From Candidatus Latescibacterota bacterium (GTDB lineage: Bacteria; Latescibacterota; UBA2968; UBA8231), in the NCBI GenBank assembly GCA_965219385.1, contig CBDCNM010000002.1, positions 4,102,305 to 4,166,304 on the forward strand: a stretch of DNA of 64,000 nucleotides. The letters are read 5' to 3'. Every line of letters starts with the position of its first letter. The first letter of the stretch is position 1. Position numbers and translations under genes: made by a program. The notes beneath the pieces were generated by a model. It did no database searches, was not told the origin of the DNA, and saw only the letters and a program-made list of their open reading frames with translations. Shown here piece by piece: positions 2,853 through 16,920 of the stretch.

Positions 2853-3335
2853 CTACAAAAGGCTGAGGCCGTAGAAGCAGATGAGGATGACGGTGATGCC
2901 GGTGGCCACGGTAAGCCCCAGGAGAATGCCCCCTTCGTCATCGCCGTTGTTTGATATTTCCCTGCTGTAGTGCCGGTACTCGCTGGACAAAAGGAAATGT
3001 CCCGAAACCAGGGCGATGATGATGGCAATCAGCGAAAAAACAAGACCCAGGATTTCGGGGGAAAGAGCCTGGATCATGCTGAGGGTATAAGAGGCCAGGT
3101 TTACCAGGAGGGGGTATTCGCGCGCCAGCACGCTGTAGATGACAATCCCCAGGCTAAAGGAACCAATCACCAGTGAAGGGAGAATTTGGAGCAGGGAAAA
3201 ACCGGCAAAGAAAAAAAGTAGGATAGTGCCGATAAACAGGTGGAACCACATGACTGAATAGGCATAGAAAAAACAAGGTCGTTCGAGAGATGTCTGGCCG
3301 ATCAGGTACTGAGAGAATGTGAGGTGACGCGCCAT
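2853..3335 (-). CDS. Hypothetical integral membrane protein
   Basis: 160-aa ORF with about 5 hydrophobic segments, convergent on mraY. Confidence 0.65.
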   Translation of the reverse strand: MARHLTFSQYLIGQTSLERPCFFYAYSVMWFHLFIGTILLFFFAGFSLLQILPSLVIGSFSLGIVIYSVLAREYPLLVNLASYTLSMIQALSPEILGLVFSLIAIIIALVSGHFLLSSEYRHYSREISNNGDDEGGILLGLTVATGITVILICFYGLSLL

Positions 3336-3542
3336 TAATCGTTGAAAGGGTAGAAGTTATGTAACGGGGTACTCGGAGAATGATTTAAAATAAGCGTATT
3401 GCGAGGGCGCGTCAAGCAGGGGCGGCAGTTAGATCGCGGAGGGAAACCAGTTTTTATATTTGATGCTAAGGGCGTGAGGGTAAATATTCATTGTTTCCCT
3501 CGAAGTGGTCCCCTGGGCTACGGTCAGCCGTGGTCTGGCGCC

Positions 3543-4472
3543 TCACCGGACAAACATCGCCTTGATCCGGCCCCAGGTCACGCTCTCCACCGCCGAATCT
3601 GGGAGCTCACCCCCAGGACCCACCAGCAGCCCCCGGGCGAAGGTGTCGGCGTTCGAGATACCGGGCCACTGGTCCTGGCCGCTAATAAAATGGTGCCCTC
3701 CCGCCAGATCGCCCTCCACGTCAAAATCAAGAATTGACAGGATAAACCCGATCAGGGTCCCACGCGACAACGACGACACCACACTCTCCTCCGGGCTGTT
3801 CCAAATCAACCGATCAAAGGGCGTCACGTAGAATTCCGTCACCGATAGTGTGGGCTGCTCGCCGAAAGAAGCCCCACCCCCCTCCGCATACGGCGGTCGC
3901 CGAAACCAATCTTCGTCTCCAATCTGATCCCACAAGCATACATGGGGGCCGCCGCCTAAGAGTTCACCCCGGACGCGGTAGTATTGAGCATGTTGATTCT
4001 CCAGCAACCGGCGTTCCTCGTCGTCTTTGATCTCGTTGGGACCGAAGGAGTATTTCCCGCCGCTGGCGTCGCCGTCCACCCTGAATCTTACCGAAGAATC
4101 CTGCCCTATCATCGAAAAACATGAGGAGCTCGCATCATCACCTGCATAAACATATATATCATCCGCGCGCTCGACCGCTACATAGAGGCGCTGGGTGGCC
4201 CCGTGCCAGGCCAGCCAGACGCGGTAATCCATATCGGCCGGATCATACGATGCCCCCCAAGAAGCGGCCTGAAAGTCCAGGGCGGTCAGAGTGGGTTCGC
4301 CCAGCAGGTTGACCCACTCGTCAATCGAGCCATCGGTCACGTCGATTTGGGCCAGGTCCGCGTCGGTCAACTCGACAAAGGGATAGAGCCTTTCGCTTTC
4401 CTGTGCCTCAGCGCCACCAAGCAGCCCCACCACCGGGCCGATAATGGGCAGGAAACGCTGTACTGTTTTCAT
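3543..4472 (-). CDS. Secreted TWGRIK-motif protein, array copy 1 (possible DOMON/CBM9-like fold)
   Basis: Start MKTVQRF chosen by alignment with paralogs. Signal peptide ends AEA|QE. DGSIDEW, LYVAVERADD and DGDASGG motifs. C-terminus SAVESVTWGRIKAMFVR. Confidence 0.85.
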   Translation of the reverse strand: MKTVQRFLPIIGPVVGLLGGAEAQESERLYPFVELTDADLAQIDVTDGSIDEWVNLLGEPTLTALDFQAASWGASYDPADMDYRVWLAWHGATQRLYVAVERADDIYVYAGDDASSSCFSMIGQDSSVRFRVDGDASGGKYSFGPNEIKDDEERRLLENQHAQYYRVRGELLGGGPHVCLWDQIGDEDWFRRPPYAEGGGASFGEQPTLSVTEFYVTPFDRLIWNSPEESVVSSLSRGTLIGFILSILDFDVEGDLAGGHHFISGQDQWPGISNADTFARGLLVGPGGELPDSAVESVTWGRIKAMFVR

Positions 4473-4513
4473 CGCGGCCTTCTCGTATGTTGCATGGCCC
4501 TCGATCTTGCGCT

Positions 4514-5443
4514 TCACCGGACAAAGGTCGCCTTGATCCGGCCCCAGGTGAGACTCTCCACCGCTGAGTCGGGGAGCTCGCCCCCAGGACCCACCAGCAG
4601 CCCCCGGGCGAAGGTGTCGGCGTTCCGTGGATCGGACCAATAGTCCTGGCCCACAATAGAATGGACGGCTTCCGCCCGGGGGCCTTCCTCGTCAAGATCT
4701 ACAATTTGCAGGATAAACCCGATCAGGGTCCCAGGCGACAACGTCGACACCACACTCTCCTCGGGGCTGTCCTGAATCAACCGATCAAAGGGCGTCACGT
4801 AGAATTCCGTCACCGATAAGGTGGGATGCTCGCCGAAAGAAGCCCCGCCCCCCTCCGCATACGGCGGCTGCCGGAACCAATCTTCGTCTCCACTTTGACT
4901 CCACAAGCAAATATGGGGACCGCTGCCGAAGATGTCACCTAGGGCGAAGTACTCTTGAGCGTGTTGACTTGTCAGCCACCGGACTTCATCCGGATCGTTG
5001 CGGTCCCGGAAGTGGTATCTCCCGCCGCTGGCGTCGCCGTCCACCCTGAATCTTACCGAAGAATCATGCCCTATCATCGAAGCACATGAGGAGCTCACAT
5101 CACCACTTTCATAATTATTGACATATATATCATCCGCGCGCTCGACCGCTACATAGAGGCGCTGGGTGGCCCCGTGCCAGGCCAGCCAGACGCGGTAATC
5201 CATATCGGCCGGATCATACGGTGCCCGACCGGGACGGGTCTGAAAGTCCAGGGCGGTCAGGGTGGGTTCGCCCAGCAGGTCCTTCCACTCGTCAATCGAG
5301 CCATCGGTCACATCGATCTGGGCCAGGTCCGCGTCGGTCAACTCGACGAAGGGATAGAGCCTTTCGCTTTCCTGCGCCTCGGCGCCACCAAGCAGCCCCA
5401 TAACCAGGCCGGTAAATTGTAGGAAACGCTTTCCTATTTTCAT
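4514..5443 (-). CDS. Secreted TWGRIK-motif protein, array copy 2
   Basis: 309 aa with the same scaffold and signal peptide. Confidence 0.85.
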   Translation of the reverse strand: MKIGKRFLQFTGLVMGLLGGAEAQESERLYPFVELTDADLAQIDVTDGSIDEWKDLLGEPTLTALDFQTRPGRAPYDPADMDYRVWLAWHGATQRLYVAVERADDIYVNNYESGDVSSSCASMIGHDSSVRFRVDGDASGGRYHFRDRNDPDEVRWLTSQHAQEYFALGDIFGSGPHICLWSQSGDEDWFRQPPYAEGGGASFGEHPTLSVTEFYVTPFDRLIQDSPEESVVSTLSPGTLIGFILQIVDLDEEGPRAEAVHSIVGQDYWSDPRNADTFARGLLVGPGGELPDSAVESLTWGRIKATFVR

Positions 5444-5500
5444 CGGGGTCTTCTCTTAGGTTGCATGGGCCTCAAGACGGTCGGCCACTAGTCTTGCACC

Positions 5501-6412
5501 TCACCGCACAAACGTCGCTTTGATGCGGCCCCAGGTCATGCTCTCCACCGCCGAGTCGGGGAGCTCACCCCCAGGGCCCACCAGCAGCCCCCGGGCGGGG
5601 TCATAGCCCGCAAGGAAATGCCAGCTTTCATGCCCGCCAACTCCAATGTCATAATCTGGAATTACCAGGTCAAACCCGATCAGGGCGCCACGCGACAACG
5701 CCGACACCACACTCTCCTCCGGGCTGTTCCAGATCAACCGATCAAAGGGCGTCACATAAAATTCAATCACCGAAATCGTGGGGTGGGCCCCGAAAGAGGT
5801 CCCTCCCCCCTCCGCATACGGCGGCCGCTGAAACCAATCTTCGTCGTCATATAGACTCTGATCGGGCAAGCATATATGCGAGCCGCCGCCGAAGAGTTCG
5901 GCCAGGACGTAGTACTTTTGAGCGTGTTGATTCGTCCGCAGCCGGCGTTCCTCCTTGGCGTCGATATCGTTGCCATGGAAGGCGTATTTCCCGCCGCTGC
6001 CATCGCCGTCTACCAGGAATTGTACCGAAGAATCATGCTGCATCATCAAAAAACATGTGGCGATCCTTCCACCGTATTCAAACTCATTGATATATATATC
6101 ATCCGAGCGCTCGACCGCCACATAGATACGCTGGGTGGCCTCGTGCCAGGCCAGCCAGACGCGGAAATCCATATCCGCCGGATCATACAGGCCCGGCTCG
6201 GGAGCGGTCTGAAAGTCCAGGGCGGTCAGGGTGGGTTCATCCAGCAGGTCCACCCACTCGTCGACGGACCCATCGGTCACGTCGATTTGGGCCAGGTCCG
6301 CGTCGGTCAACTCGACGAAGGGATAGAGCCTTTCGCTTTCCTGTGCCTCGGCGCCACCAAGCAGCCCCACCACCAGGCCGATAATGGGTAGGGACCTCTT
6401 TATTAGGTTCAT
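5501..6412 (-). CDS. Secreted TWGRIK-motif protein, array copy 3
   Basis: Start MNLIKRS by paralogy, AGGA RBS. Last variable loop is shortened. Confidence 0.85.
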   Translation of the reverse strand: MNLIKRSLPIIGLVVGLLGGAEAQESERLYPFVELTDADLAQIDVTDGSVDEWVDLLDEPTLTALDFQTAPEPGLYDPADMDFRVWLAWHEATQRIYVAVERSDDIYINEFEYGGRIATCFLMMQHDSSVQFLVDGDGSGGKYAFHGNDIDAKEERRLRTNQHAQKYYVLAELFGGGSHICLPDQSLYDDEDWFQRPPYAEGGGTSFGAHPTISVIEFYVTPFDRLIWNSPEESVVSALSRGALIGFDLVIPDYDIGVGGHESWHFLAGYDPARGLLVGPGGELPDSAVESMTWGRIKATFVR

Positions 6413-6483
6413 CCTGGTCCTTCCTTGGGCTGTATTTCCATTGAGGTGGTCCCCCAGGCCCCGGCCGGCCGCTGGCGGACGCC

Positions 6484-7422
6484 TCACAGGACAAACATCG
6501 CCTTGATCCGGCCCCAGGTGAGACTCTCCACTGCCGAGTCGGGGATCTCACCTCCAGGGCCCACCAGAAGGCCCCGGGCGAAGCCGTCGGCGTTCGAGAG
6601 ACCGGGCCACTCGTCCTGGCCGCTAGTAAAATGGTGCCCTCTCCACCGCTCGCCTTCCACGTCATAATCACGCATGGACAGGACAAACCCGATCAGGGTC
6701 CCAGGCGACAACGTCGACACCACACTCTCCTCCGGGCTGTTCCAAATCAACCGATCAAAGGGCGTCACGTAGAATTCCGTCACCGATAGCGTGGGCTGCT
6801 CGCCGAAAGAGGCCCCGCCCCCCTCCGCATACGGCGGTAGCAGAAACCAACCTTCCTTTGCTCTGGAAGACCCCAAGCATACATGGGGGCCGCCGCCGGA
6901 GATGTCACCCAAGGCGTTGTAGTTTTGAGCCTGTTGACCATTCAGCAACCAGCGTTCATCCCGGTCCTTGATCTCGGTGGGACCGAAGGAGTATTGCCCG
7001 CCGCTGGCGTCGCCGTCCACTCTGAAGTTTACCGAAGAATCATGCCCCCACATCGAATCACATTCAGGTCTCGCCGCATCACTCCCGTCATAGGTATTAA
7101 TATATATATCATCGGAGCGCTCGACCGCCACATAGAGGCGGTGGGTGGCCCCGTGCCAGGCCAGCCAGACGCGGTAATCCATATCGGCCGGATTATACGG
7201 TGCCCGATCGGGATCGGTCTGAAAGTCCAGGGGGGTCAGGGTGGGTTCGCCCAGCAGGTCGACCCACTCGTCGACGGACCCATCGGTCACGTCGATCTGG
7301 GCCAGGTCTGCGTCGGTCAACTCGACGAAGGGATAGAGCCTTTCGCTTTCCTGTGCCTCGGCGCCACAAAGCAGCCCCAAAACCAGGCCGATAATGGATA
7401 GGGACCTCTTTATTAGGTTCAT
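6484..7422 (-). CDS. Secreted TWGRIK-motif protein, array copy 4
   Basis: Start MNLIKRS (alternative ATG at 7446). Same scaffold. Confidence 0.85.
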   Translation of the reverse strand: MNLIKRSLSIIGLVLGLLCGAEAQESERLYPFVELTDADLAQIDVTDGSVDEWVDLLGEPTLTPLDFQTDPDRAPYNPADMDYRVWLAWHGATHRLYVAVERSDDIYINTYDGSDAARPECDSMWGHDSSVNFRVDGDASGGQYSFGPTEIKDRDERWLLNGQQAQNYNALGDISGGGPHVCLGSSRAKEGWFLLPPYAEGGGASFGEQPTLSVTEFYVTPFDRLIWNSPEESVVSTLSPGTLIGFVLSMRDYDVEGERWRGHHFTSGQDEWPGLSNADGFARGLLVGPGGEIPDSAVESLTWGRIKAMFVL

Positions 7423-7518
7423 CCTGGTCCTCTTTAATGTTTTCATCGTGGTCCTCCCTTATGCCGCATTTCCATTGAGGCGGTCGCCTTGGCCCCGGTC
7501 GGCCACTAGTCTTGCACC

Positions 7519-8450
7519 TCACCGGACAAAGGTCGCCTTGATCCGGCCCCAGGTGAGACTCTCCACCGCTGAGTCGGGGATCTCACCCCCAGGACCCACC
7601 AGAAGGCCCCGGGCGAAGCCGTCGGCGTTCAAGCTGTCGGACCAATAGTCCTGGCCCGTAATAGAATGGACAGTTTCCGCCCGCCAGGCGCCTTCCTCGT
7701 CAATATCTCCAATGTGCAGGACAAACCCGATCAGGGTCCCAGGCGACAACGTCGACACCACACTCTCCTCGGGGCTGTCCTGAATCAACCGATCAAAGGG
7801 CGTCACGTAGAATTCCGTCACCGATAGCGTGGGATGCTCGCCGAAAGAAGCCCCCCCCCCTCCGCATACGGCGGCTGCCGGAACCAATCTTCGTCTCCAA
7901 TCTGATCCCACAAGCATACATGGGGGCCGCCGCCGACGATGTCACCCAGGAGGATGTAGTTTTGAGCGTGTTGATTATTCAGCAACCGGAGTTCATCCGA
8001 GACGTTGCGACCAAGGAAGAGGTATTGCCCGCCGCTGGCGTCTCCGTCCACGATGAAGGTTGCCGAAGAATCATGCCCCGTCATCAAATTACATGAGGGG
8101 GGCGTTCCATCACCTTCATAATTATTGACATATATATCATCCGAGCGTTCGATCGCCACATAGAGGCGGTGGGTGGCCCCGTGCCAGGCCAGCCAGACGC
8201 GGTAATCCATATCCGACGGATCATACGATGCCCCATCGGGACGGATCTGAAAGTCCAGGGCGGTCAGGGTGGGTTCGCCCAGCAGGTCGACCCACTCGTC
8301 GACGGACCCATCGGTCACGTCGATTTGGGCCAGGTCCGCGTCGGTCAACTCGACGAAGGGATAGAGCCTTTCGCTTTCCTGTGCCTCGGCGCTACAGAGC
8401 AACCCCACCACCAGGCCGATAAGTTGTAGGAAACGCTTTCCTGTTTTCAT
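7519..8450 (-). pseudogene. TWGRIK-motif protein copy 5, frameshifted at a C10/G10 homopolymer (7851-7860)
   Basis: Split into ORFs 7818..8450 and 7519..7917. Intact paralogs have 11 nt here (e.g. CCCCGCCCCCC in copy 2); this copy has 10 uninterrupted C. Confidence 0.85.
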
Positions 8451-8506
8451 CGGGGTCTTCTCTTATGCGGCATGGCCTTCAAGGCGGTCAGCCATGGTCT
8501 TGCACC

Positions 8507-9445
8507 TCACCGGACAAAGGTCGCCTTGATCCGGCCCCAGGTGAGACTCTCCACCGCCGAATCGGGGAGCTCGCCCCCAGGGCCCACCAGAAGGCCCCGG
8601 GCGAAGTCGTCGGCGTTCGAGATACCGGGCCACTGGTCCTGGCCGCTAATAAAATGGTGCCCTCCCGCCAGCTCGCCCTCCACGTCAAAATCACGAATGG
8701 ACAGGATAAACCCGATCAGGGTCCCACGCGACAACGTCGACACCACACTCTCCTCCGGGCTGTTCCAAATCAACCGATCAAAGGGCGTCACGTAGAATTC
8801 CGTCACCGATAGCGTGGGATGAGCCCCGAAAGAGGCCCCACCCCCCTCCGCATACGGCGGTAGATTGTACCAACCTTCCTTTGCTCTGGAAGCCCCCAAG
8901 CATACATGGGGGCCGCCGCCGACGATGTCACCCAAGGCGTTGTAGCTTTGAGCGTGTTGATAATTCAGCAACTGGCGTTCCTCGTCGTCCTTGATCTCGT
9001 TGAGACTGAAGACGTATTTCCCGCCGCTGGCGTCGCCGTCCACTATGAAGTTTACCGAAGAATCATGCACCCTCATCCCAACACATTCAGGTCTCGCCGC
9101 ATCACTCCCGTCATAGTTATTAATGTATATATCATCGGAGCGCTCGACCGCCACATAGATTCGGTGGGTGGCCCCGTGCCAGGCCAGCCAGACGCGGTAA
9201 TCCATATCGGCCGGATCATACGGGGCCCGGTCGGGACGGGTCTGAAAGTCCAGGGCGGTCAGGGTGGGTTCGCCCAGCAGGTCGATCCACTCGTCAATCG
9301 AGCCATCGGTCACATCGATCTGGGCCAAGTCTGAGTCGGTCAACTCGACGAAGGGATAGATTCTTTCGCTTTCCTGCGCCTCGGCAACATGGAGTAGCCC
9401 CACCACCAAGCCGATAATGGGTAGGGGCCTCTTTACTAAGTTCAT
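8507..9445 (-). CDS. Secreted TWGRIK-motif protein, array copy 6
   Basis: 312 aa with AGGAGG RBS. Confidence 0.85.
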   Translation of the reverse strand: MNLVKRPLPIIGLVVGLLHVAEAQESERIYPFVELTDSDLAQIDVTDGSIDEWIDLLGEPTLTALDFQTRPDRAPYDPADMDYRVWLAWHGATHRIYVAVERSDDIYINNYDGSDAARPECVGMRVHDSSVNFIVDGDASGGKYVFSLNEIKDDEERQLLNYQHAQSYNALGDIVGGGPHVCLGASRAKEGWYNLPPYAEGGGASFGAHPTLSVTEFYVTPFDRLIWNSPEESVVSTLSRGTLIGFILSIRDFDVEGELAGGHHFISGQDQWPGISNADDFARGLLVGPGGELPDSAVESLTWGRIKATFVR

Positions 9446-9796
9446 CCTGGTCCTCCTTTATGTTGAATTTCCCTTGAGGCGGTCATATACCCATTGGGCC
9501 ACCATCAAGCCGGCGATCCAACGGACAGGTTCACACCGCTTCATCCAACCGCGCAAACTCGCTGCCTCAGTAATGGGTTAGCCGCCGGCCAGCACCGCAC
9601 CGGACAACCGTTGCCTTGATCCGGCCCCAGGTGATACGGGCACGGGTTCAGCGCGAGGGAAAACATTCGTTCTTTCAATCAAAGCCAACACGTTGCGTGG
9701 CGGTGCAAAAACCATCGTAACCTGTCGATCCTTCAAATAGATAGCGATTTTCCCCTCTACTGAACCCGTGCCACCATGTATAACGGCGTAGCTTAA
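9446..9796. repeat. Duplicated upstream region, copy A (matches 14034-14406 and resumes at 10705-10721 after the IS5)
   Basis: Colinear blocks shared with 14034-14423, e.g. ACGGACAGGTTCAC, AACTCGCTGCCTCAGTAATGG and AACGGCGTAGCTTAAG. Confidence 0.9.
9639..9772. mobile_element. 134-bp MITE-like element with GGCACGGGTTCAG terminal inverted repeats
   Basis: 13-bp perfect IR extending imperfectly to ~25 bp. No TSD found. Second copy at 14249-14382. Confidence 0.6.
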
Positions 9797-10701
9797 GAGG
9801 CCCTAACAAAACTCTTTGAGGTACTTCCAACAGATGAGAATACATCCGATGTCGAGAAAGGCTTCATGGAGATCACCTCGTCGCTCCCAGCGGACTCGAA
9901 GCCGACGGAATTGGTGCAACCATGCCAACGTTCGTTCCACCACCCACCGATAGACGCCCAAGCCGCTGCCGTGGGCTTGCCCTCGCCGAGCCAACACCGA
10001 GCCGATGCCCCGCTTACGCAAGGCGCGCCGATGGGCTTGCGAATCATAGGCCCGATCCCCTTGCACCCGATCCGGCCGACGACGCGGGCGGCCGACCCGA
10101 CCGGCCACCGGGGGTATGCGATCCACCAACGGCAACAGCTGCGTCACATCATGCCGATGGGCCCCCGTCACCCCCGCCGCCAACGGCACCCCTTGGGCAT
10201 CGGTGATTACATGGTGTTTGCTACCGGGTTTGCCGCGGTCCGTCGGATTGGGACCGGTGTGCGCCCCCCCCCAACCGCCCGCACCGAGGCACTATCGACC
10301 ACCGCACGAGACCAATCAATCCGGTCGGCGGCCCTCAGTCGGTTCAACAGGATATGATGGACTCTTTTCCAGACCCCGGCTTGTTGCCAAGCGTGCAGGC
10401 GACGCCAACAGGTCATCCCCGAACCGCACCCCATCTCTTGAGGCAAATACTCCCAAGGGATACCCGTCTTGAGCACAAAGAGAATGCCGGTCAGCACCCT
10501 ACGGTTATCCAGCCGAGGCCGCCCCCCTTGGGGGCCAACGGTTACGGGGGGCAAAACCGGTTCAATCAAGGCCCATAACCCATCGTCGAGTAACGGCTTG
10601 GCCATCAAAAACACCTCCATATCAAGACGGTAGAAGCAATACCGAAGAGGATAAGAATATAATGAAGCCTATACGCGATTCCAAGGTTTTGTTAGAGACT
10701 C
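9797..10701 (-). mobile_element. IS5-family element (IS427-like, two ORFs with frameshift), 905 bp
   Basis: TIRs GAGGCCCTAACAAAA / GAGTCTCTAACAAAA. TAA duplication at 9794-9796 and 10702-10704. The paralogous empty site has a single TAA at 14404-14406. Confidence 0.95.
9803..10620 (-). CDS. IS5-family transposase (orfA 10207..10620 plus orfB frame, joined by a frameshift near the G9 run at 10264-10272)
   Basis: GILFVLKTGIPWEYLP, VDSASVRA, GDRAYDS and RWVVERTLAWLHQFRRL motifs. Confidence 0.9.
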
Positions 10702-10711
10702 TAAGTACCGA

Positions 10712-10829
10712 GCCGCTCAAGACTGTGAGTCTTTATATCTTGAGGGCTTTGTTGCATGGAAGACGATAACTTATTGGGACACAACAAGTCGAGTTACAGA
10801 TATTCGTGCAACAAAGCCTATCTTGAGCG
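10712..10829 (-). terminator. Hairpin CGCTCAAGA...TCTTGAGCG downstream of the peptide gene, interrupted by the 74-bp MITE
   Basis: Inverted repeat directly 3' of the stop codon, restored when the MITE is removed. No clear U-tract. Confidence 0.4.
10745..10818. mobile_element. 74-bp MITE with IS903-like TIR (GGCTTTGTTGCA) and 9-bp TSD
   Basis: Perfect 12-bp IR, flanked by TATCTTGAG at 10736-10744 and 10819-10827. Confidence 0.85.
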
Positions 10830-11117
10830 TCAATAGCAATAGCAAACATCGTCGTCATGCACGGAACACATGTACCTGTCGCATTTTTTATCGTTGTCGC
10901 AAATATCGCCACAGTACTCCTCTTTCTTATGACAGTCCTTAAGAGGTGTGGGGCCCTTCTTACAAGTGCGTGCCTCGGCCGGGTCGGGTGCCAGCACCAC
11001 GGCGGCTGCCAGCAGAAGGCCCACCACCCAGGCTACCGGCAGACCCGTCCTCGGCGACACATAGCCGCTCTCGCTCGTGACAAACTCGGTCAATGTTCTA
11101 CGCAAATGAAGCAGCAT
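10830..11117 (-). CDS. Secreted 8-cysteine peptide precursor (defensin/scorpion-toxin-like spacing)
   Basis: AAGGA RBS, leader with FVTSESG, hydrophobic stretch and AEA cleavage site. The 46-aa core has C-x9-C-x6-C-x3-C-x5-C-x4-C-x7-C-x-C. Confidence 0.8.
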   Translation of the reverse strand: MLLHLRRTLTEFVTSESGYVSPRTGLPVAWVVGLLLAAAVVLAPDPAEARTCKKGPTPLKDCHKKEEYCGDICDNDKKCDRYMCSVHDDDVCYCY

Positions 11118-11251
11118 AACAGGTTCCTTTCGTTAATTAGAAAAAAACAAGGGCAAAATACGGTCCTCCCCACCCCATTGGTGCACTCAAACCATGCTCT
11201 CACCTCCTTTCAGGCAAGCTCGACAGGTCCAGGGAAGTCCGTCGAGGGGCA

Positions 11252-11827
11252 TCAGGGCCCCCGCGGCTTGAGGACATCGGCTACCAACTGCTGCACCAGT
11301 TCAAGCCCGCCCGGCACCCCAACGGCAGAATCTTTGATCTGACCTTCTCCATCGAGCAGGTAGGTCGTTGGCACCGACAGGGCTTTATAGGCTGCCGATA
11401 CGCCCCCCGTAGTGTCCTGCAATACCGGAAACAGGCCCGCGACTTGGCCTTCGAGCACCTGTACCTCAGCAGAAAGTTCCTCCCGTTGCTTGCTACCTCG
11501 GCTGATAAACACCAGACGATGGTGCAGATCCGGTAACCCCTCGTCGATCAGGCTTTGCTTCAACTCTTTGCAGTACGGGCAAGTAGGGGTCACAAACATT
11601 AGCACCGAGGAAGCGCCCCTGAGATCTTGCAGGGCCATGCCTTCGCCCTGAACACCGGGCAGGTGAAAGTCCGGCGCGGCGGTGCCCCGCGGTAGCCGAC
11701 TCTTGCCCTTAACCACGAGGCGCTGCAACAGCGAGGATTCCGGCGCTTCGGCCACCCGTAGCGCCCCGACCAGGGCCACGGCCAGCACGCCACCAACGAT
11801 ACCCGGTTGGTAGGTTTTTAGGTCCAT
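11252..11827 (-). CDS. Membrane-anchored TlpA/MauD-like thioredoxin-fold protein (CPYC)
   Basis: N-terminal TM, GTAAPDFHL, TPTCPYC and SVPTTYLLD. TGATG coupling to the upstream gene. Confidence 0.85.
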   Translation of the reverse strand: MDLKTYQPGIVGGVLAVALVGALRVAEAPESSLLQRLVVKGKSRLPRGTAAPDFHLPGVQGEGMALQDLRGASSVLMFVTPTCPYCKELKQSLIDEGLPDLHHRLVFISRGSKQREELSAEVQVLEGQVAGLFPVLQDTTGGVSAAYKALSVPTTYLLDGEGQIKDSAVGVPGGLELVQQLVADVLKPRGP

Positions 11828-12372
11828 CAAATGCCTCCTGATTTAGGCTCATTCCAGGCGAGAATCTGCTCGACACTCTTACTCCCTGTAGCCGCCTGAC
11901 GCACGATGCCCTCCGGGTCAATCAACAAAACGCTGGGAAGAGTCCTGACCCGGTACAATTGCTGCACCGTGTGCAAACTATCATATCCCACCGCCACCGC
12001 CACCTTGCCCCATCGAGCGGCTAATTGCTGCCGATCGCCCACCCCAACCACCACCACCGGCAGTCGTTCCGCCGCTTGCTGAAGCGACGGATAGGCCGCC
12101 TGGCAAGCCCCACAGGCCGAATCGGTAAAAAACAACAGCCAGGCCGTAGCCCCAGGGGCACTCTGCAGGGAAACGACTCCCCCAGTGACCCCCTCCATCT
12201 CGAAGGGGGGGGCCGAATGCCCCAATAAATGCGCGAAGGGGAGGGGCCGAATGCCCGGCGGAGCCCCCGTTTCCAAGCGCACCCCCAGGCCGATACACAG
12301 CGCCAGCAACACCCCTACAACCCCTGACAGCGGCAAGACTAGAGGATTCAACGCGTCTCCAGAGGTTGCCAT
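11827..12372 (-). CDS. Membrane-anchored TlpA/MauD-like thioredoxin-fold protein (CGAC)
   Basis: AAGGAGG RBS, TM segment, GHSAPPF, SACGAC and TLPSVLLIDPEG. Confidence 0.85.
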   Translation of the reverse strand: MATSGDALNPLVLPLSGVVGVLLALCIGLGVRLETGAPPGIRPLPFAHLLGHSAPPFEMEGVTGGVVSLQSAPGATAWLLFFTDSACGACQAAYPSLQQAAERLPVVVVGVGDRQQLAARWGKVAVAVGYDSLHTVQQLYRVRTLPSVLLIDPEGIVRQAATGSKSVEQILAWNEPKSGGI

Positions 12373-12388
12373 CGCCTTTGCCTCCTTT

Positions 12389-12967
12389 CTATCCATCAAT
12401 CCAGGCCCCTAAGCCGGCAAGCTGCCCCAGCAGGGCGCGCACCGTAAGCGTTGCCCCGGTCAGCCCGTCCACCTCCGGACCCAACCGCAACGAATCGCGC
12501 ACCGAACGCCCCACCAACTGGGCCAGGAACCCCGCTGGGTCAACCGGCCCGCTCGCCGTTTCCCAACCCGCCAGCGGCACTATCCCGGCCATGTGCGGCG
12601 TATCTGGGGCCAGAAAGACCGCCACCAGCAAATCCTTGCAGGTGGTGCAGGCAATATCGTGCCGCACCACCGCCAGCCTATAGATGGGCTGATGGTCCTC
12701 GTGTACCTGATAGACCTGGACCACGCCGGAACGCGGTGCCGGTTGGGGGCTGTAGATCACCTGGAGGCGAGGCGCGACCAGTTCTGGGTTAAACTGTCGG
12801 GTTATAGTGCGTAAATGCGGTTCGGAAGGAAGCGCGGGCAGGGCTGGCTCAGCGGGCCGGTCGGCAGCGTCGGGGGAGAGGTGCAACAGGACGAGCACCC
12901 CTGACCCCAGCACGAGGATCAGGCCCAGCAGGAGGTAGACGGCAGGATCGCGTACGGACCAGGACAT
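12389..12967 (-). CDS. Membrane-anchored FMN-binding (RnfG/NqrC-type flavinylation motif) protein with CxxC
   Basis: Start MSWSVRD with GGGAG RBS, N-terminal TM, HDIACTTC and C-terminal VDGLTGATLT. Confidence 0.75.
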   Translation of the reverse strand: MSWSVRDPAVYLLLGLILVLGSGVLVLLHLSPDAADRPAEPALPALPSEPHLRTITRQFNPELVAPRLQVIYSPQPAPRSGVVQVYQVHEDHQPIYRLAVVRHDIACTTCKDLLVAVFLAPDTPHMAGIVPLAGWETASGPVDPAGFLAQLVGRSVRDSLRLGPEVDGLTGATLTVRALLGQLAGLGAWIDG

Positions 12968-13094
12968 CGGCCGACTCCCGACTCCCGGTTGGCAGGCACA
13001 TCTAAGCATAAATATAATCGAGTCGAGGGGCCCATGCAAGCCCGGGCAAGCCAGGGCGTTGGGGGGGGGCCATACGACGGCCCGGCCTTTGTGC

Positions 13095-14033
13095 TTAGGG
13101 GATAAAGGTCGCCTTGATCCGGCCCCAGGTGAGACTCTCCACCGCTGGGTCGGGGAGCTCACCCCCGGGGCCCACCAGCAGCCCCCGGGCGAAGAAGTCG
13201 TCCAGGGTCTTCTCAATAAAATGCCAGGCTTCTGGCCGCCAGGCGCCTTCCTCGTCAAAATCTGCAATTGCCAGGTAAAACCCGATCAGGGTCCCAGGCG
13301 ACAACACTGACACCACACTCTCCGCCGGGCTGTTCCAAATCAACCGATCAAAGGGTGTCACGTAGAATTCCGTCACCGATAGCGTGGGATGAGCCCCGAA
13401 AGAGGCCCCACCTCCCTCCGCATACGGCGGCAGATTGAACCAATCTTCGTCGTTATATACACTCTGATCGGCCAAGCATACATGGGGGCCGCCGCCGACG
13501 ATGTCACCCAGGACGTAGTAGTCTTGAGCGTGTTGATTTATCCGCAGCCGGAGTTCCTCATCGAACCCGGGGCCTATATTGACACTGCCCTCCGAGAAGC
13601 GGCGGTGTTCCCCGCCGCTGGCGTCGCCGTCCACCCTGAAGAATACCGAAGAATCATGCCTCTCCATCCAAATACATGAACGGATCGTTCCATCATATTC
13701 ATACTTATTGATATATATATCATCGGCGCGCTCGACCGCCACATAGATACGCTGGGTGGCCCCGTGCCAGGCCAGCCAGACGCGGTAATCCATATCCACC
13801 GGATCATACGAGACCCCATCGGGACCGGTCTGAAAGTCCAGGGGGATCAGGGTGGGTTCACCCAGCAGGTCGACCCACTCGTCGACGGACCCATCGGTCA
13901 CGTCGATCTGGGCCAGATCCGCGTCGGTCAACTCGACGAAGGGATAGAGCCTTTCGCTTTCCTGTGCCTCGGCGCCATGGAGCAGCCCCACCACCAGGCC
14001 GATAATGGGTAGGGAACGCTTTACTAGGTTCAT
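13095..14033 (-). CDS. Secreted TWGRIK-motif protein, array copy 7
   Basis: 312 aa with the same scaffold. Confidence 0.85.
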   Translation of the reverse strand: MNLVKRSLPIIGLVVGLLHGAEAQESERLYPFVELTDADLAQIDVTDGSVDEWVDLLGEPTLIPLDFQTGPDGVSYDPVDMDYRVWLAWHGATQRIYVAVERADDIYINKYEYDGTIRSCIWMERHDSSVFFRVDGDASGGEHRRFSEGSVNIGPGFDEELRLRINQHAQDYYVLGDIVGGGPHVCLADQSVYNDEDWFNLPPYAEGGGASFGAHPTLSVTEFYVTPFDRLIWNSPAESVVSVLSPGTLIGFYLAIADFDEEGAWRPEAWHFIEKTLDDFFARGLLVGPGGELPDPAVESLTWGRIKATFIP

Positions 14034-14423
14034 CGTGGTCCTTCCTTAGGTTGAATTTCCCTTGATGTGGTCATATACCCGTTGGGCCGCCATAAAGCCG
14101 GCGGTCCAACGGACAGGTTCACGCCATTGGCCTCCGAGCACTCCGTGCGCTTCATCCAACCGCGCGAACTCGCTGCCTCAGTAATGGTTAGCCGCCGGCC
14201 AGCGCCTCACCGGTCAACCGTCGGGTTTATCCGGCCCCAGGTGCTACAGGCACGGGTTCAGCACGAGGGGAAACATTCGTTATTTCAATCAAAATCAACA
14301 CGTTGTGCGGCTATGCAAAAACCACCATAACCCGTCGATCCTTCAGATAGATAGCGATTCTCTCCTCTGCTGAACCCGTGCCACCATGTACAACGGCGTA
14401 GCTTAAGTAGCAAGCCGCTCAAG
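14034..14423. repeat. Duplicated upstream region, copy B, containing the 134-bp MITE (14249-14382) and the empty IS5 site
   Basis: Matches 9446-9796 plus 10705-10721. Confidence 0.9.
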
Positions 14424-14505
14424 TTTATCCAAACGCGCATGGCAGGAGGCCGGTATTCTCCGTACTGTTGATGGTCTCACCACATCGACAGCCCAGGAGA
14501 AAACA

Positions 14506-14715
14506 ATGAGCCCCCTGCCGAAAGAAATAATAACGATTTTGTCGTCCTTTGCCCCCCAGGGTCGCCTCGTCCTGGGCCTGGATGAGACCCTCGAGCGGTG
14601 CCGGGGTGCGCAGATTGGGGCCCAAGGCATTTGCCGGGATCCAGTCCGCTCGAGGGGGCACCACCTCGTCAAGGCCAGCGGCTTGCGCTGGCTGTTGTTG
14701 ATGCTGGTAGCGCCC
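14506..14715 (+). pseudogene. IS701-like transposase fragment
   Basis: LVLGLDETLERCRG...GICRDPVRSRGHHLVKASGLRWL, internally deleted. Confidence 0.65.
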
Positions 14716-14881
14716 TGTAGTGGACCCCGAAAACTGGACCACTGATTAAGACAAGATTATCTTACCAGTGGAGATTGTCATGAATCGAAAAAACTACGGT
14801 CCTGAATTTAAGGCCCGCGTAGCGCTGGAAGCGCTCAAAGGGCTGAAAACGCTCAATCAATCCAAGCAAAATTCGAGATGA
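14716..14881 (+). mobile_element. IS3-family left end with truncated orfA
   Basis: TG-initiated end TGTAGTGGACCCC. ATG at 14780 gives MNRKNYGPEFKARVALEALKG. Confidence 0.7.
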
Positions 14882-16920
14882 TGGGCACAGATAACCTCGA
14901 CATCCCTATGGAAAAGGTAAAAGGAGTAGGTGCCAAGAGGGGAGCCGTGCTCAAGGAAGCAGGCATCCACACGGTGAGGGATTTATTTTTTTATTTGCCT
15001 CGACGCTATCTGGATCGCAGCCAGATTATACCGATCAGCCGGACTCCGTCCGGCCGGGAAGTGACCTTGATCGGCCAGGTAAGACAGATGCGGTTTGTGC
15101 CCGGTGCTCGGCCGCGTTTCACCCTGGTGGTAGAAGACGAAACCGAAGATATCACCTGCGTGTGGTTTCAGGGGGGGCACTACATGCAGCGCAACTTCAA
15201 GGAAGGGGATGTTCTGGCTCTCAGCGGCAAGGTAGAAATCTTCCAGGGGCGGCCCCAGATGGTGCATCCGGAATACGAGTTTATTGCCGTTCCAGGTGCT
15301 CCGAGTCTGCTTCATACCGGGGGGATTGTACCGCTCTATACCGCCAGTGCGGATATGAAGGAACGGGGCCTGCGCAGCCGGGGGTTCCGCCGCATGGTGC
15401 ATGGAGCCCTGGAGGCATTCAAGGAGGAAATACACGACGAAATGCCCGCGGATATCAGGGGACGCCTGGGTTTGATCGGTCGGCGGGAAAGCTTCCAGCT
15501 GGTGCATTTTCCACAGACCATGGAAGATGTGCAGCAGGCTCGGCGACGGCTTGCTTTTGACGAGCTTTTCGCCTTTCAGCTGCGCCTCGCCCGCCTGCGT
15601 CGCAAGCGGCTCCAGCAGGACGACGGGATTGAATTTGTCCCTGTAGATAAGCTGGCGAGGGCTTTGCGCGCATCTTTGCAATTCGAGTTGACCGGGGCCC
15701 AAGAGCGAGTTATCGGGGAGATCCGGGCGGATATGGCCCGGCCCTTTCCCATGAACCGGCTGCTGCAAGGGGATGTGGGATCGGGAAAAACCCTCGTAGC
15801 GCTGAGCGCCATGCTGAACGCGGTGGAAAACGGGTACCAGAGCGCCCTGATGGCGCCCACCGAGATCCTGGCGGAGCAGCACTTCCTGAACATCCAAGCC
15901 CTGGCAGAGCCCCTGGGGACGAAGGTGATCCTGCTGGTAGGCGGGCAGAAGGTGGCCCTGAGAAGAGAACATCTCCAGGCAATTGCAAGCGGCGGCGCAG
16001 ATATTGTCGTAGGGACGCACGCCCTGATTCAGGACGAGGTCAACTTTCACAAGCTCGGCCTGGTGGTGGTGGACGAGCAGCATCGCTTTGGGGTCGTGCA
16101 GCGATCCACGCTCTACGGCAAAGGGCCCAGGTGCGATGTGCTGGTCATGACGGCCACGCCGATTCCCCGGACCCTGACCCTGACCCTGTACGGCGACCAG
16201 GAGGTGTCGTTGATTGACGAACTTCCCCCCGGGCGAAAAGCCGTGCACACAGTCATGCGCACCCAGGAGCGCCGGGAACTCATCTTCGAATTTGCCGCCG
16301 ACCAGATCCGCGCCGGACGCCAGGTGTGCGTGGTGTATCCGCTGATCGAGGAGGCAGAAAAAATGGACCTCCGAGCCGCTATCGAAGGCTTTGAGGAGTT
16401 GCGGAACGGACTGCTGGCGGAATTCCGGGTGGGGCTACTGCACGGTCGTCTGGCAGCCGAGGAAAAGGCCGGGATCATGGAATCCTTCAAACGGGGGGAG
16501 ATCCAGGTCCTGGTTAGCACCACGGTGATCGAGGTGGGGGTGGACGTGCCCAATGCGACGGTGATGATCATCGAACACGCCGAGCGTTTTGGTCTGGCCC
16601 AGTTGCACCAGCTCAGGGGAAGGGTGGGCCGTGGCCCGGAGCAGTCCTACTGTATTCTGATTGCCTATTCGGGGTCCGAGGGCTCCGATTCAATCGAGCG
16701 GTTGCGCACTTTGTGTGCCACCCAGGATGGTTTTGAGATCGCTCAGAAAGACCTGGAGCTTCGGGGGCCGGGTGAAATCTTCGGCACTCGCCAGGCAGGT
16801 TTGCCCGAGTTCGTGGTTGCGGACCTGGTAGAGGATGGCGAGTTGCTGGAACTGGCCCGGAGGGAAGCCGTGCGGGTGGTTGATGAGGAAGAACGCCGGG
16901 CATTTCAAGAAAGCTGCTGA
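14878..16920 (+). CDS. recG: ATP-dependent DNA helicase RecG
   Basis: LQGDVGSGKT, DEQHRFG, MTATPIPRT, QLRGRVGRG and DLELRGPGE motifs. Confidence 0.97.
   Translation: MMGTDNLDIPMEKVKGVGAKRGAVLKEAGIHTVRDLFFYLPRRYLDRSQIIPISRTPSGREVTLIGQVRQMRFVPGARPRFTLVVEDETEDITCVWFQGGHYMQRNFKEGDVLALSGKVEIFQGRPQMVHPEYEFIAVPGAPSLLHTGGIVPLYTASADMKERGLRSRGFRRMVHGALEAFKEEIHDEMPADIRGRLGLIGRRESFQLVHFPQTMEDVQQARRRLAFDELFAFQLRLARLRRKRLQQDDGIEFVPVDKLARALRASLQFELTGAQERVIGEIRADMARPFPMNRLLQGDVGSGKTLVALSAMLNAVENGYQSALMAPTEILAEQHFLNIQALAEPLGTKVILLVGGQKVALRREHLQAIASGGADIVVGTHALIQDEVNFHKLGLVVVDEQHRFGVVQRSTLYGKGPRCDVLVMTATPIPRTLTLTLYGDQEVSLIDELPPGRKAVHTVMRTQERRELIFEFAADQIRAGRQVCVVYPLIEEAEKMDLRAAIEGFEELRNGLLAEFRVGLLHGRLAAEEKAGIMESFKRGEIQVLVSTTVIEVGVDVPNATVMIIEHAERFGLAQLHQLRGRVGRGPEQSYCILIAYSGSEGSDSIERLRTLCATQDGFEIAQKDLELRGPGEIFGTRQAGLPEFVVADLVEDGELLELARREAVRVVDEEERRAFQESC

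Follow-up and report, generated by a model that had tools for sequence, protein, structure and literature searches.

How are disulfide bonds introduced into exported, cysteine-rich peptides by a bacterium in which the familiar membrane oxidants cannot be found? To our knowledge, DsbB and VKOR are the only two families that generate disulfides in the bacterial envelope. Many lineages without DsbB and VKOR still export disulfide-rich proteins. The question is raised here by a locus of a Candidatus Latescibacterota bacterium. The window, that is, the whole stretch of DNA analysed, comprises 64,000 nucleotides (nt) of contig CBDCNM010000002.1 in assembly GCA_965219385.1 (positions 4,102,305 to 4,166,304). 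The genome to which it belongs measures 5.8 Mb in two contigs and is 94% complete; it was searched for DsbB and VKOR, and neither was found. In named records, the close relatives of the window are Latescibacterota metagenome-assembled genomes (MAGs) only. Positions 10830–12967 of the window hold four genes, labelled A to D in the following. A encodes a flavin-binding-type protein with a cysteine pair, B and C encode thioredoxins, and D encodes the precursor of a cysteine-rich peptide. The reading favoured here, to which we assign a probability of about one half on the sequence evidence, is that these genes specify a disulfide relay linked to a flavin. It would act on exported peptides, possibly defensin-like, the leader of which would be cut by a prepilin-peptidase-type protein, P.

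All four genes lie on the minus strand. Gene A (12389–12967) encodes a membrane-anchored RnfG/NqrC-like, FMN_bind-type protein of 192 residues, as judged from its open reading frame (ORF), a structural model, Foldseek and hhalign. Genes B (11827–12372, 181 residues) and C (11252–11827, 191 residues) encode membrane-anchored TlpA/ResA-like thioredoxins. Gene D (10830–11117) encodes a 95-residue precursor with eight cysteines and belongs to no Pfam family. A preliminary description of the locus had reported four co-oriented genes, the first three tightly coupled, and this layout stands: 16 nt separate the stop codon of A from the ATG of B, the ATG of C shares one base with the TGA of B (TGATG), and C and D are 134 nt apart. 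The ATG at 12372, which lies 8 nt downstream of AAAGGAGG, is preferred as the start of B over a TTG at 12399. A promoter and terminator scan of 10600–13300 gave nothing convincing upstream of A on the minus strand, and an Rfam scan of 3000–15000 gave no match. None of the ORFs surrounding the cluster was recognized as mauA or mauE; the genome as a whole was not searched for MauE or MauA. The whole set is present three times in the genome and recurs in relatives, so the cluster is not a product of chance.

The flavin-linked part of the argument rests on A. The membrane anchor and the CTTC and DGLTGAT motifs attributed to this protein in the preliminary description are all present. CTTC (12638–12649, minus strand) contains Cys107 and Cys110 and forms part of an invariant R-H-D-I-x-C-x-x-C-x-D stretch in the alignment. 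DGLTGAT (12449–12469, minus strand; residues 167–173) is an ApbE-type flavinylation motif, with Thr173 as the predicted attachment site of flavin mononucleotide (FMN). An AlphaFold2 model of A (pLDDT 80, pTM 0.71) predicts the elements of the FMN_bind fold: an N-terminal hydrophobic helix (residues 8–29) as membrane anchor, a beta-sheet domain and a C-terminal helix (171–191) that starts at the putatively flavinylated Thr173. In a Foldseek search with this model the best 15 rows listed are all RnfG or NqrC chains, headed by 7zc6_G (E 4.4e-4, probability 1.0). Profile–profile comparison by hhalign of the A family with eight proteins that pass the Pfam FMN_bind cut-off gives a probability of 98.2 and an E-value of 3.7e-14 over 63 columns. 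A relative of A at locus L021 (42% identical) itself passes that cut-off, with 25.4 bits against 22. For these three reasons A is classed, by predicted fold and profile match, as a divergent member of the ApbE-flavinylated RnfG/NqrC-type FMN_bind fold. A sequence-profile search of the PDB found nothing significant for A, with NqrC at E 2.6. In an alignment of 22 A relatives, R102, H103, D104, C107, C110, D112, W135, E136 and G140 are invariant, as are D167, G168, G171, A172 and T173 of the motif region, and Thr173 is accordingly placed among the conserved positions as a predicted flavinylation site.

Where does the cysteine pair lie relative to the flavin? In the model of A it precedes Glu136 by 26–29 residues and falls in the loop that connects strands 93–103 and 113–119. 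The alignment by hhalign lays W-E-T-A-S-G of A on the flavin-binding E-T-P-G-L-G loop of NqrC (loop 8-E). The crystal structure of NqrC has the flavin ring held between loop 8-E and loop 6-7 (Leu149, Trp150), with loop 6-7 situated 27 residues upstream of loop 8-E and the flavinylated Thr229 opening the last helix (PMC4348036). Taken together, model, alignment and published structure suggest that the Cys pair of A occupies the place of NqrC loop 6-7, beside the flavin. The enzyme predicted to attach that flavin is encoded as well. A search for apbE beyond the window, proposed in the preliminary description, finds one gene in the window genome (283.6 bits), and in G089, a relative from another genus, A is preceded at a distance of 119 bp by an additional apbE.

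The thioredoxins B and C complete the proposed redox chain. Their active-site cysteines are Cys87 and Cys90 in B (CGAC, 12103–12114) and Cys83 and Cys86 in C (CPYC, 11570–11581). Both proteins match Pfam AhpC-TSA/Redoxin above cut-off (AhpC-TSA, 42.2 bits for B and 47.9 bits for C), and both have the CxxC motif and cis-Pro loop of TlpA/ResA-like thioredoxins, which bears out the membrane-anchored thioredoxin folds reported earlier. C87, C90 and P146 of B are invariant in eight orthologues. The NCBIfam models for ResA, StoA, DsbE and MauD all match B and C far under their cut-offs. The label 'MauD-type' used in the preliminary description is thus reduced to a resemblance of fold: the MauD equivalog model (TIGR02661, cut-off 188.6 bits) gives 30.5 bits with B and 28.3 bits with C, and ResA scores higher. 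A predicted complex of A (residues 45–192) with B (residues 40–181) scored 0.00 and lends no support to their contact.

D is the proposed substrate. Its leader (10971–11117, minus strand; residues 1–49) comprises, in a 15-sequence alignment, a conserved n-region in which F12, S17 and G18 do not vary, then a hydrophobic helix and a terminal AEA; the hydrophobic stretch covers residues 25–42. The core with its stop codon (10830–10970, minus strand; residues 50–95) carries cysteines at 52, 62, 69, 73, 79, 84, 92 and 94. All eight are confined to the last 44 residues, in agreement with the 95-residue, eight-cysteine precursor first reported. The n-region resembles Flp prepilin leaders (...E/S-S-G, about six residues, G-L, hydrophobic helix). 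In the manner of class III signal peptides an invariant Gly occupies position -1 (S17 and G18 in all 15 sequences) and is followed by the hydrophobic helix. Position +5 is Arg, Lys, Glu or Trp according to lineage and lacks the constant Glu of type IV and Flp pilins. In every lineage an AxA signal-peptidase site comes after the helix. A hidden Markov model of the leader finds only four ORFs in the window genome, all of the D family, and 14 ORFs in the loci of relatives, 12 of them with 8–21 Cys. At two of these loci, in another genus, the D leader heads proteins of 257–330 residues (L018:4941-5933, L018:5890-6846 and L019:6169-6942). These contain 15–21 Cys in repeated modules and a FlgD_ig/T9SS-like C-terminal domain, and they adjoin FG-GAP proteins of 716–745 residues with the same tail.

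Leader and core differ in how far they are conserved. Among nine close D relatives (36 pairs) the mean identity is 87% for leaders and 39% for cores, or 27% for core positions outside Cys, with the CxxxC and the C-terminal CxC kept. Core net charge ranges from -9 to +5 and is negative in eight of the nine. Because most cores are acidic, a classical cationic antimicrobial action is unlikely. The arrangement C62, C69xxxC73, C84 and C92xC94 follows the cysteine-stabilized (CS) alpha/beta framework C..CxxxC..C..CxC, to which C52 and C79 add an extra pair. The AlphaFold model of D is of low confidence (pLDDT 57); the elements of its core run beta-alpha-beta-beta, the helix containing the CxxxC and the final strand the CxC. 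A Foldseek search with this low-confidence model gave no match at E <= 1. Plant defensins, brazzein or scorpion toxins make up 15 of the 46 rows listed, none significant, and the best defensin row, 7jn6, is likewise not significant (E 1.9, TM 0.56 normalized by target, 29% identity). The same entry is the only PDB sequence-profile match on the D core (E 2.2). A search of the ESM Atlas with the core gave no usable match. The odds that the core is a defensin-like CS-alpha/beta knot are, on the model and framework, roughly even. D was also considered as a ribosomally synthesized and post-translationally modified peptide with a leader-guided modifying enzyme. This was rejected: none of the loci has a maturase-type gene, and the leader is of the membrane-targeting kind.

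Comparison of the three genomic copies shows how the peptide varies and what accompanies it. A, B and C are 91–93% identical in protein between copies, and a D gene follows each. At the DNA level the copies share about 93–95% identity over a stretch that starts just upstream of A and reaches about 10990. Beyond this point the window copy falls to about 0.5 identity with the other two, which remain about 98% alike. The homology break, at about 10990–10975, is the leader/core junction of D. The other two copies run on as D-U-P, where U is a secreted CBM9-like protein and P a predicted peptidase. A-B-C-D is part of a larger conserved module that includes P. The four genes of the preliminary description are thus real and recurrent, and the four-gene unit is not, since the prepilin-peptidase-type P and the CBM9-like U had been missed. 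Further recombinant pieces are found elsewhere in the genome. An ORF at G000:C2:4175890-4176282 (G000 being the window genome) joins the N-terminal 97 residues of U to the C-terminal part of a D core, and degraded D copies lie at C2:789107-789367 and C2:368209-368424. The chimera and the degraded copies are signs of recombination among module parts.

P is a polytopic membrane protein of 357 residues. It matches Pfam Peptidase_A24 with 38 bits in four genome copies and with 32.2–36.8 bits in relatives, the cut-off being 26.5. The catalytic Asp residues of T-D and of G-D-A-K-L are invariant in nine sequences and a C-terminal P-F-x-P is kept. The protein carries an insertion of about 170 residues. 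Four intact copies and one degraded copy lie outside the window, and every intact P gene of the genome is found about 65 bp behind a U gene. The four copies are the only Peptidase_A24 matches over cut-off in this genome.

The same genes recur, in changing order, across five Latescibacterota genera. Gene maps of relatives were drawn by homology for 17 distinct A loci with flanks: three in G000, four in G015 (one degraded), one each in G039, G033 and G027 (degraded), and L018, L019 (= L093), L020, L021, L022, L092 (G089) and L094 (the second locus of G153). The order is A-B-C-P-D-U-U in G015, D, D, ..., A-P-B-C in L018–L020, P-A-B-C-D at the second G153 locus, ApbE-A-B-C-P-D in G089 and P-D...A-B in G039. 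A, B, P and leader-bearing Cys-rich ORFs are the parts that recur. A B-type thioredoxin stands beside A at 14 of the 17 loci. The preliminary description had proposed looking for a conserved-leader, variable-core Cys-rich ORF near A, and at 13 of the 17 the fetched flank contains one with the D leader and at least five Cys.

Fusion proteins connect A with thioredoxins more directly. A profile of A searched against 1.84 billion representatives gave 392 matches at E <= 1e-3 and 20 at E <= 1e-30; an R/K-H/K-D-I-x-C-x-x-C-x-D-like stretch is present in 24 of 148 proteins among the matches listed. P0125, one of these 24, combines a transmembrane segment with a thioredoxin domain that has a CxxC and with an A domain. 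Four proteins from deltaproteobacterial MAGs have the architecture Trx-Trx-A: P0152 and P0171, which are also among the 24, and L023 and L024. Such fusions offer Rosetta-stone support for a direct partnership of A and thioredoxin. No peptidase or leader peptide occurs among the ORFs listed around L023 and L024, so these fusions would serve another context.

A survey of 168 Latescibacterota genomes (A family at E <= 1e-12, P at E <= 1e-25) places the module in its redox setting. The A family is present in 27 genomes and in 5 of 49 genera, DsbB in 20 genomes and VKOR in 22. Not one of the 27 A-bearing genomes has DsbB or VKOR, against 40 of the 141 others (Fisher p 4e-4, a value overstated by kinship among non-independent genomes). 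Within genus g13, A occurs in 17 genomes and DsbB in four others. Of the 32 genomes in which P is found, 25 belong to the 27 A-bearing genomes and 7 to the 141 others. Among the places listed, paired by eye, a P place lies within 5 kb of 32 of 47 A places, and many are directly adjacent.

Transcript data bear on the module as well. Contigs 90–97% like it occur in two RNA-library runs that come from a single study and bear the label 'sponge metagenome'. They cover C (11322–11867), the D leader (10972–11105) and a piece of A (12484–12733). B and the greater part of A have no contig, a gap that is uninformative. One contig of 406 nt spans the end of C and the D leader and then continues into a different core. 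A contig from a relative diverges at 10972, the same point as the leader/core homology break of the genomic copies. A 20-kb control stretch has sparse contigs from the same runs, some identical to the window. The contigs, which give neither strand nor level, are weak evidence that the module of a relative or a paralogue is transcribed.

The following mechanism is proposed. (i) D-type precursors would insert with the N-terminus inside and the C-terminus outside. (ii) P would probably remove the n-region after the invariant Ser-Gly (Gly18). That P cuts the D leader is likely; the basis is co-occurrence. (iii) Signal peptidase may release the core at AxA. (iv) On the outer face, B and C would exchange disulfides with the core. 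(v) A, predicted to be flavinylated by ApbE, would re-oxidize B and C through its CxxC. (vi) Electrons would pass from the thiols of D to B and C, to the CxxC of A, to FMN and finally to O2 or another acceptor. The logic would be that of Erv, Ero1 or QSOX, transposed to an FMN_bind fold. The window genome encodes a haem-copper oxidase (COX1), so an oxic lifestyle of the organism is possible. The oxidative relay put forward in the preliminary description is largely borne out at the genomic level by these results; taken as a whole, it is partly supported.

Several points weigh against the relay. The direction of electron flow, the flavinylation of A and the role of D as substrate are predictions, and O2 is no more than a candidate acceptor for electrons from the flavin of A. 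A itself reaches 14.7 bits with Pfam FMN_bind (PF04205) over 17 residues around the motif, below the cut-off of 22; a search of the genome for this family found two other genes, and A was not among them. The closeness of the cysteines to the flavin is read from topology and not from coordinates. No P gene lies near the window copy of the module, 7 genomes carry P without A, and a leader that ends in an AxA site and has no pilin Glu at +5 does not by its sequence require cleavage by P. The leader ORF is missing from the flank at 4 of the 17 A loci, L012 (disrupted), L013, L015 and L021; L013 is degraded and its leader ORF has 0 Cys. As 101 of the 168 genomes have none of A, DsbB and VKOR, the complementary distribution may in part reflect lineage and MAG gaps. 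The RNA evidence consists of contigs in RNA libraries, for which carry-over of DNA is not excluded. A last group of points concerns the thioredoxins. TlpA/ResA-like proteins are usually reductants fed by DsbD or CcdA, and the window genome has one DsbD_TM gene. C orthologues in G015 have CPYS in place of CPYC, the second Cys being Ser, and the G039 and G033 loci have no C gene.

These last observations lead to the rival that survives best, in which the same module works in the opposite or in a neutral redox direction. B and C would then reduce or isomerize the cysteines of D as ResA, TlpA or DsbC do, with electrons supplied through the flavin and CxxC of A or by the DsbD/CcdA of the genome, and with the first oxidation occurring spontaneously or through another enzyme. 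The best matches of B and C are indeed to models of the ResA, StoA, DsbE and TlpA types, which are reductants; the DsbD_TM gene would provide an electron source; the CxxS of C in G015 is a pattern typical of isomerase and reductase variants; and peptides with 8–21 Cys need proofreading. Yet no DsbD or CcdA gene is present in any module locus examined, and the module has no membrane partner that would feed electrons into A. The absence of DsbB and VKOR from all 27 A-bearing genomes fits the replacement of an oxidant and not the addition of a reductant. MauD, which has the same fold as B and C, is required for disulfide formation. We regard the reductive or isomerizing module as unlikely.

Could the invariant residues of A hold a metal instead of serving a flavin? 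In this rival the Arg-His-Asp...Cys-x-x-Cys stretch would bind zinc, copper, iron or an Fe-S cluster, and the module would act in metal or redox sensing of exported proteins. His103, Asp104, Cys107 and Cys110 are all invariant and form a set typical of metal sites, A scores under the FMN_bind cut-off, and Foldseek weakly lists IscU at E about 1. Those IscU rows are not significant, and the flavinylation motif and the E-T-x-G-like loop are just as invariant as the putative metal ligands. A dedicated apbE adjoins A in G089, and the fusion partners of A are CxxC thioredoxins. A metal site at the heart of the module is improbable.

Slightly less probable still is that A, B and C serve the U proteins, or thiol homeostasis of the envelope in general, and that D lies nearby through a shared, repeated and recombining island. 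The window copy of U upstream of A (13095–14033, minus strand) encodes a secreted protein of 312 residues without a Pfam match, termed CBM9-like from ESM Atlas features that score 0.97 to clusters partly carrying CBM9_1. U is abundant: tblastn finds 19 full-length paralogues in tandem arrays, 67–95% identical to the window copy. It flanks every copy of the module in this genome, and P copies also stand in U arrays that have no A-B-C. The metagenomic representative P0087, furthermore, fuses an A domain (R-Y-D-I-E-C-E-D-C-R-D, G-I-S-G-A-T) to CBM9_1 (38.9 bits in Pfam). This fusion, the only link found between A and a U-like fold apart from gene order, hints that U may be more than a bystander. 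By BLAST, however, U has no similarity to the CBM9 tail of P0087. U proteins contain only 1–3 Cys, and in modules of other genera (e.g. L018–L020, L092, L014) U is absent and leader-bearing Cys-rich ORFs are present. U was also considered as a haem-binding, DOMON-type electron acceptor and dropped, its conserved columns being mostly Asp, Glu and Gly with no conserved Met. Least probable of all is that D is a Flp-like pilin carrying a Cys-rich head on a fibre, with P as a classical prepilin peptidase and A to C merely folding the head: the leader does resemble that of Flp prepilins and P is an A24 peptidase, but a search of the window genome gave no T2SSE-family ATPase over cut-off and no Flp pilin (Flp_Fap) match, the leader has no constant Glu at +5, the AxA site follows the helix in all lineages, and no pilus genes are present in the loci examined.

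U genes also mark the remainder of the neighbourhood. Six further U paralogues, recognized by tblastn and in ORF lists, form an array downstream of D (3549–9445, minus strand). One of them is broken (7525–8450, minus strand) into pieces at 7851–8450 and 7525–7848 and is probably a frameshifted pseudogene. Outside the window, U genes lie around G000:C2 4173478–4179424 and 4197777–4203914. An insertion sequence (IS) element separates D from the array (9803–10620, minus strand) at the point where, in the three-copy comparison, the other two copies continue as D-U-P. It comprises two ORFs, DUF4096 (94.8 bits) followed by a DDE_Tnp_1 transposase (58.3 bits), with a frameshift as the probable link between them. 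Two U genes are preceded by a repeat of about 400 nt (9400–9797 and 13988–14407, 88% identity) without an Rfam match. It may serve U genes in common as a promoter or 5' leader. Contigs from RNA-library run X13 extend over 14283–14714.

What would the module mean if the relay exists? A generator of disulfides based on ApbE and an FMN_bind flavoprotein would fill part of the gap left by DsbB and VKOR. A would be an analogue, of independent evolutionary origin, of the Erv, Ero1 and QSOX enzymes of eukaryotes and viruses. A-B-C would offer a compact three-gene tool for making multi-disulfide peptides in hosts or compartments without Dsb. Prepilin-type peptidases would be tied to a class of substrates that are not pilins, and a phylum and a processing route would join the short list of bacterial defensin-like peptides. 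In its most ambitious form the proposal adds a third way in which disulfides would be formed de novo in the bacterial envelope. A covalently flavinylated sulfhydryl oxidase of the FMN_bind fold, its CxxC placed against the flavin, would replace DsbB or VKOR, would be wired through dedicated thioredoxins to a leader-defined family of hypervariable defensin-like peptides, and would act on substrates matured by a prepilin-type peptidase in a pilus-free cell. This form is put forward tentatively, as possible and rather doubtful.

The literature on extracytosolic flavinylation, sulfhydryl oxidases, Latescibacter Cys-rich proteins and bacterial defensins yielded no description of the module, the supplementary cluster table of PMC8238504, which might hold related clusters, not being covered. 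Within the accessible text of a 2024 preprint (PMC10979944) the words thioredoxin, cysteine and CXXC do not occur, and 'disulfide' occurs in the reference list only. The accessible text of a 2025 review of ApbE (PMC12052999) likewise has none of the words thioredoxin, disulfide and thiol.

Each part of the module has known counterparts. RnfG and NqrC share with A an N-terminal membrane anchor, an extracytoplasmic FMN_bind fold, the motif D-G-x-[ST]-G-A-T, whose Thr begins the last helix, and a flavin loop of E-T-x-G-like sequence. A differs in scoring below the Pfam cut-off and in its surroundings, where RNF or NQR partners are absent and thioredoxins, a leader peptidase and Cys-rich peptides are encoded. 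It also differs from NqrC by an invariant CxxC in what is, by topology, the loop where NqrC holds Leu149 and Trp150. Erv/ALR, Ero1 and QSOX are related by logic. In these enzymes a CxxC beside non-covalently bound flavin adenine dinucleotide makes disulfides and passes them to a thioredoxin-fold carrier. The order proposed here, from a CxxC flavoprotein to a thioredoxin carrier, is similar, and the Trx-A fusions mimic the Trx-Erv fusion of QSOX. The fold of A is unrelated to theirs, its FMN is predicted to be covalent, and its setting is the bacterial envelope.

Compared with DsbA/DsbB and VKOR, the module would likewise supply oxidizing equivalents to exported cysteines, and the distributions are complementary (0 of 27). 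The proposed oxidant A is not a quinone-coupled polytopic membrane protein like DsbB or VKOR, and A-B-C appears dedicated to one leader-defined family of substrates. In the MauD/MauE system, too, a membrane-anchored thioredoxin of TlpA fold is encoded beside a small Cys-rich protein. B and C fall far below the MauD cut-off, and the substrates are unrelated. With class III signal peptides and A24 peptidases (PilD, TadV/CpaA, FlaK), the module shares a P that passes the A24 cut-off with both Asp motifs, and a D with an invariant Gly before its helix. It departs from them in the insertion of about 170 residues in P, in Cys-rich substrates with an AxA site and without Glu at +5, and in a genome without a pilus or type II secretion system (T2SS) ATPase over cut-off.

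The bacterial cis-defensins, in the portion of the account available (PMC11561630, 2024), comprise 74 peptides in five classes and three phyla, Latescibacterota not among them. They are secreted and have the framework C..CxxxC..C..CxC, and the low-confidence model of D follows the order beta-alpha-beta-beta. That account mentions no thioredoxin in the part available, and D differs by two extra Cys, a different arrangement and mostly acidic cores. The closest published system is the 'hybrid thioredoxin-like/flavinylation' cluster of Meheust et al. 2021 (PMC8238504), as far as its accessible text describes it. Both are clusters of putative function. In each, an extracytoplasmic protein flavinylated by ApbE, or predicted to be so in the case of A, is accompanied by a thioredoxin-like protein and by a small secreted one that has a C-x-C motif at its end. 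The flavinylated protein of the published cluster is a DUF3570 protein and not a CxxC-bearing FMN_bind protein, it is proposed to draw electrons from DsbD, and the cluster as described has neither an A24 peptidase nor multi-Cys, variable-core peptides. What is new in the module described here builds on known kinds: flavin-linked thiol oxidation, extracytoplasmic flavinylation and prepilin-type leader processing.

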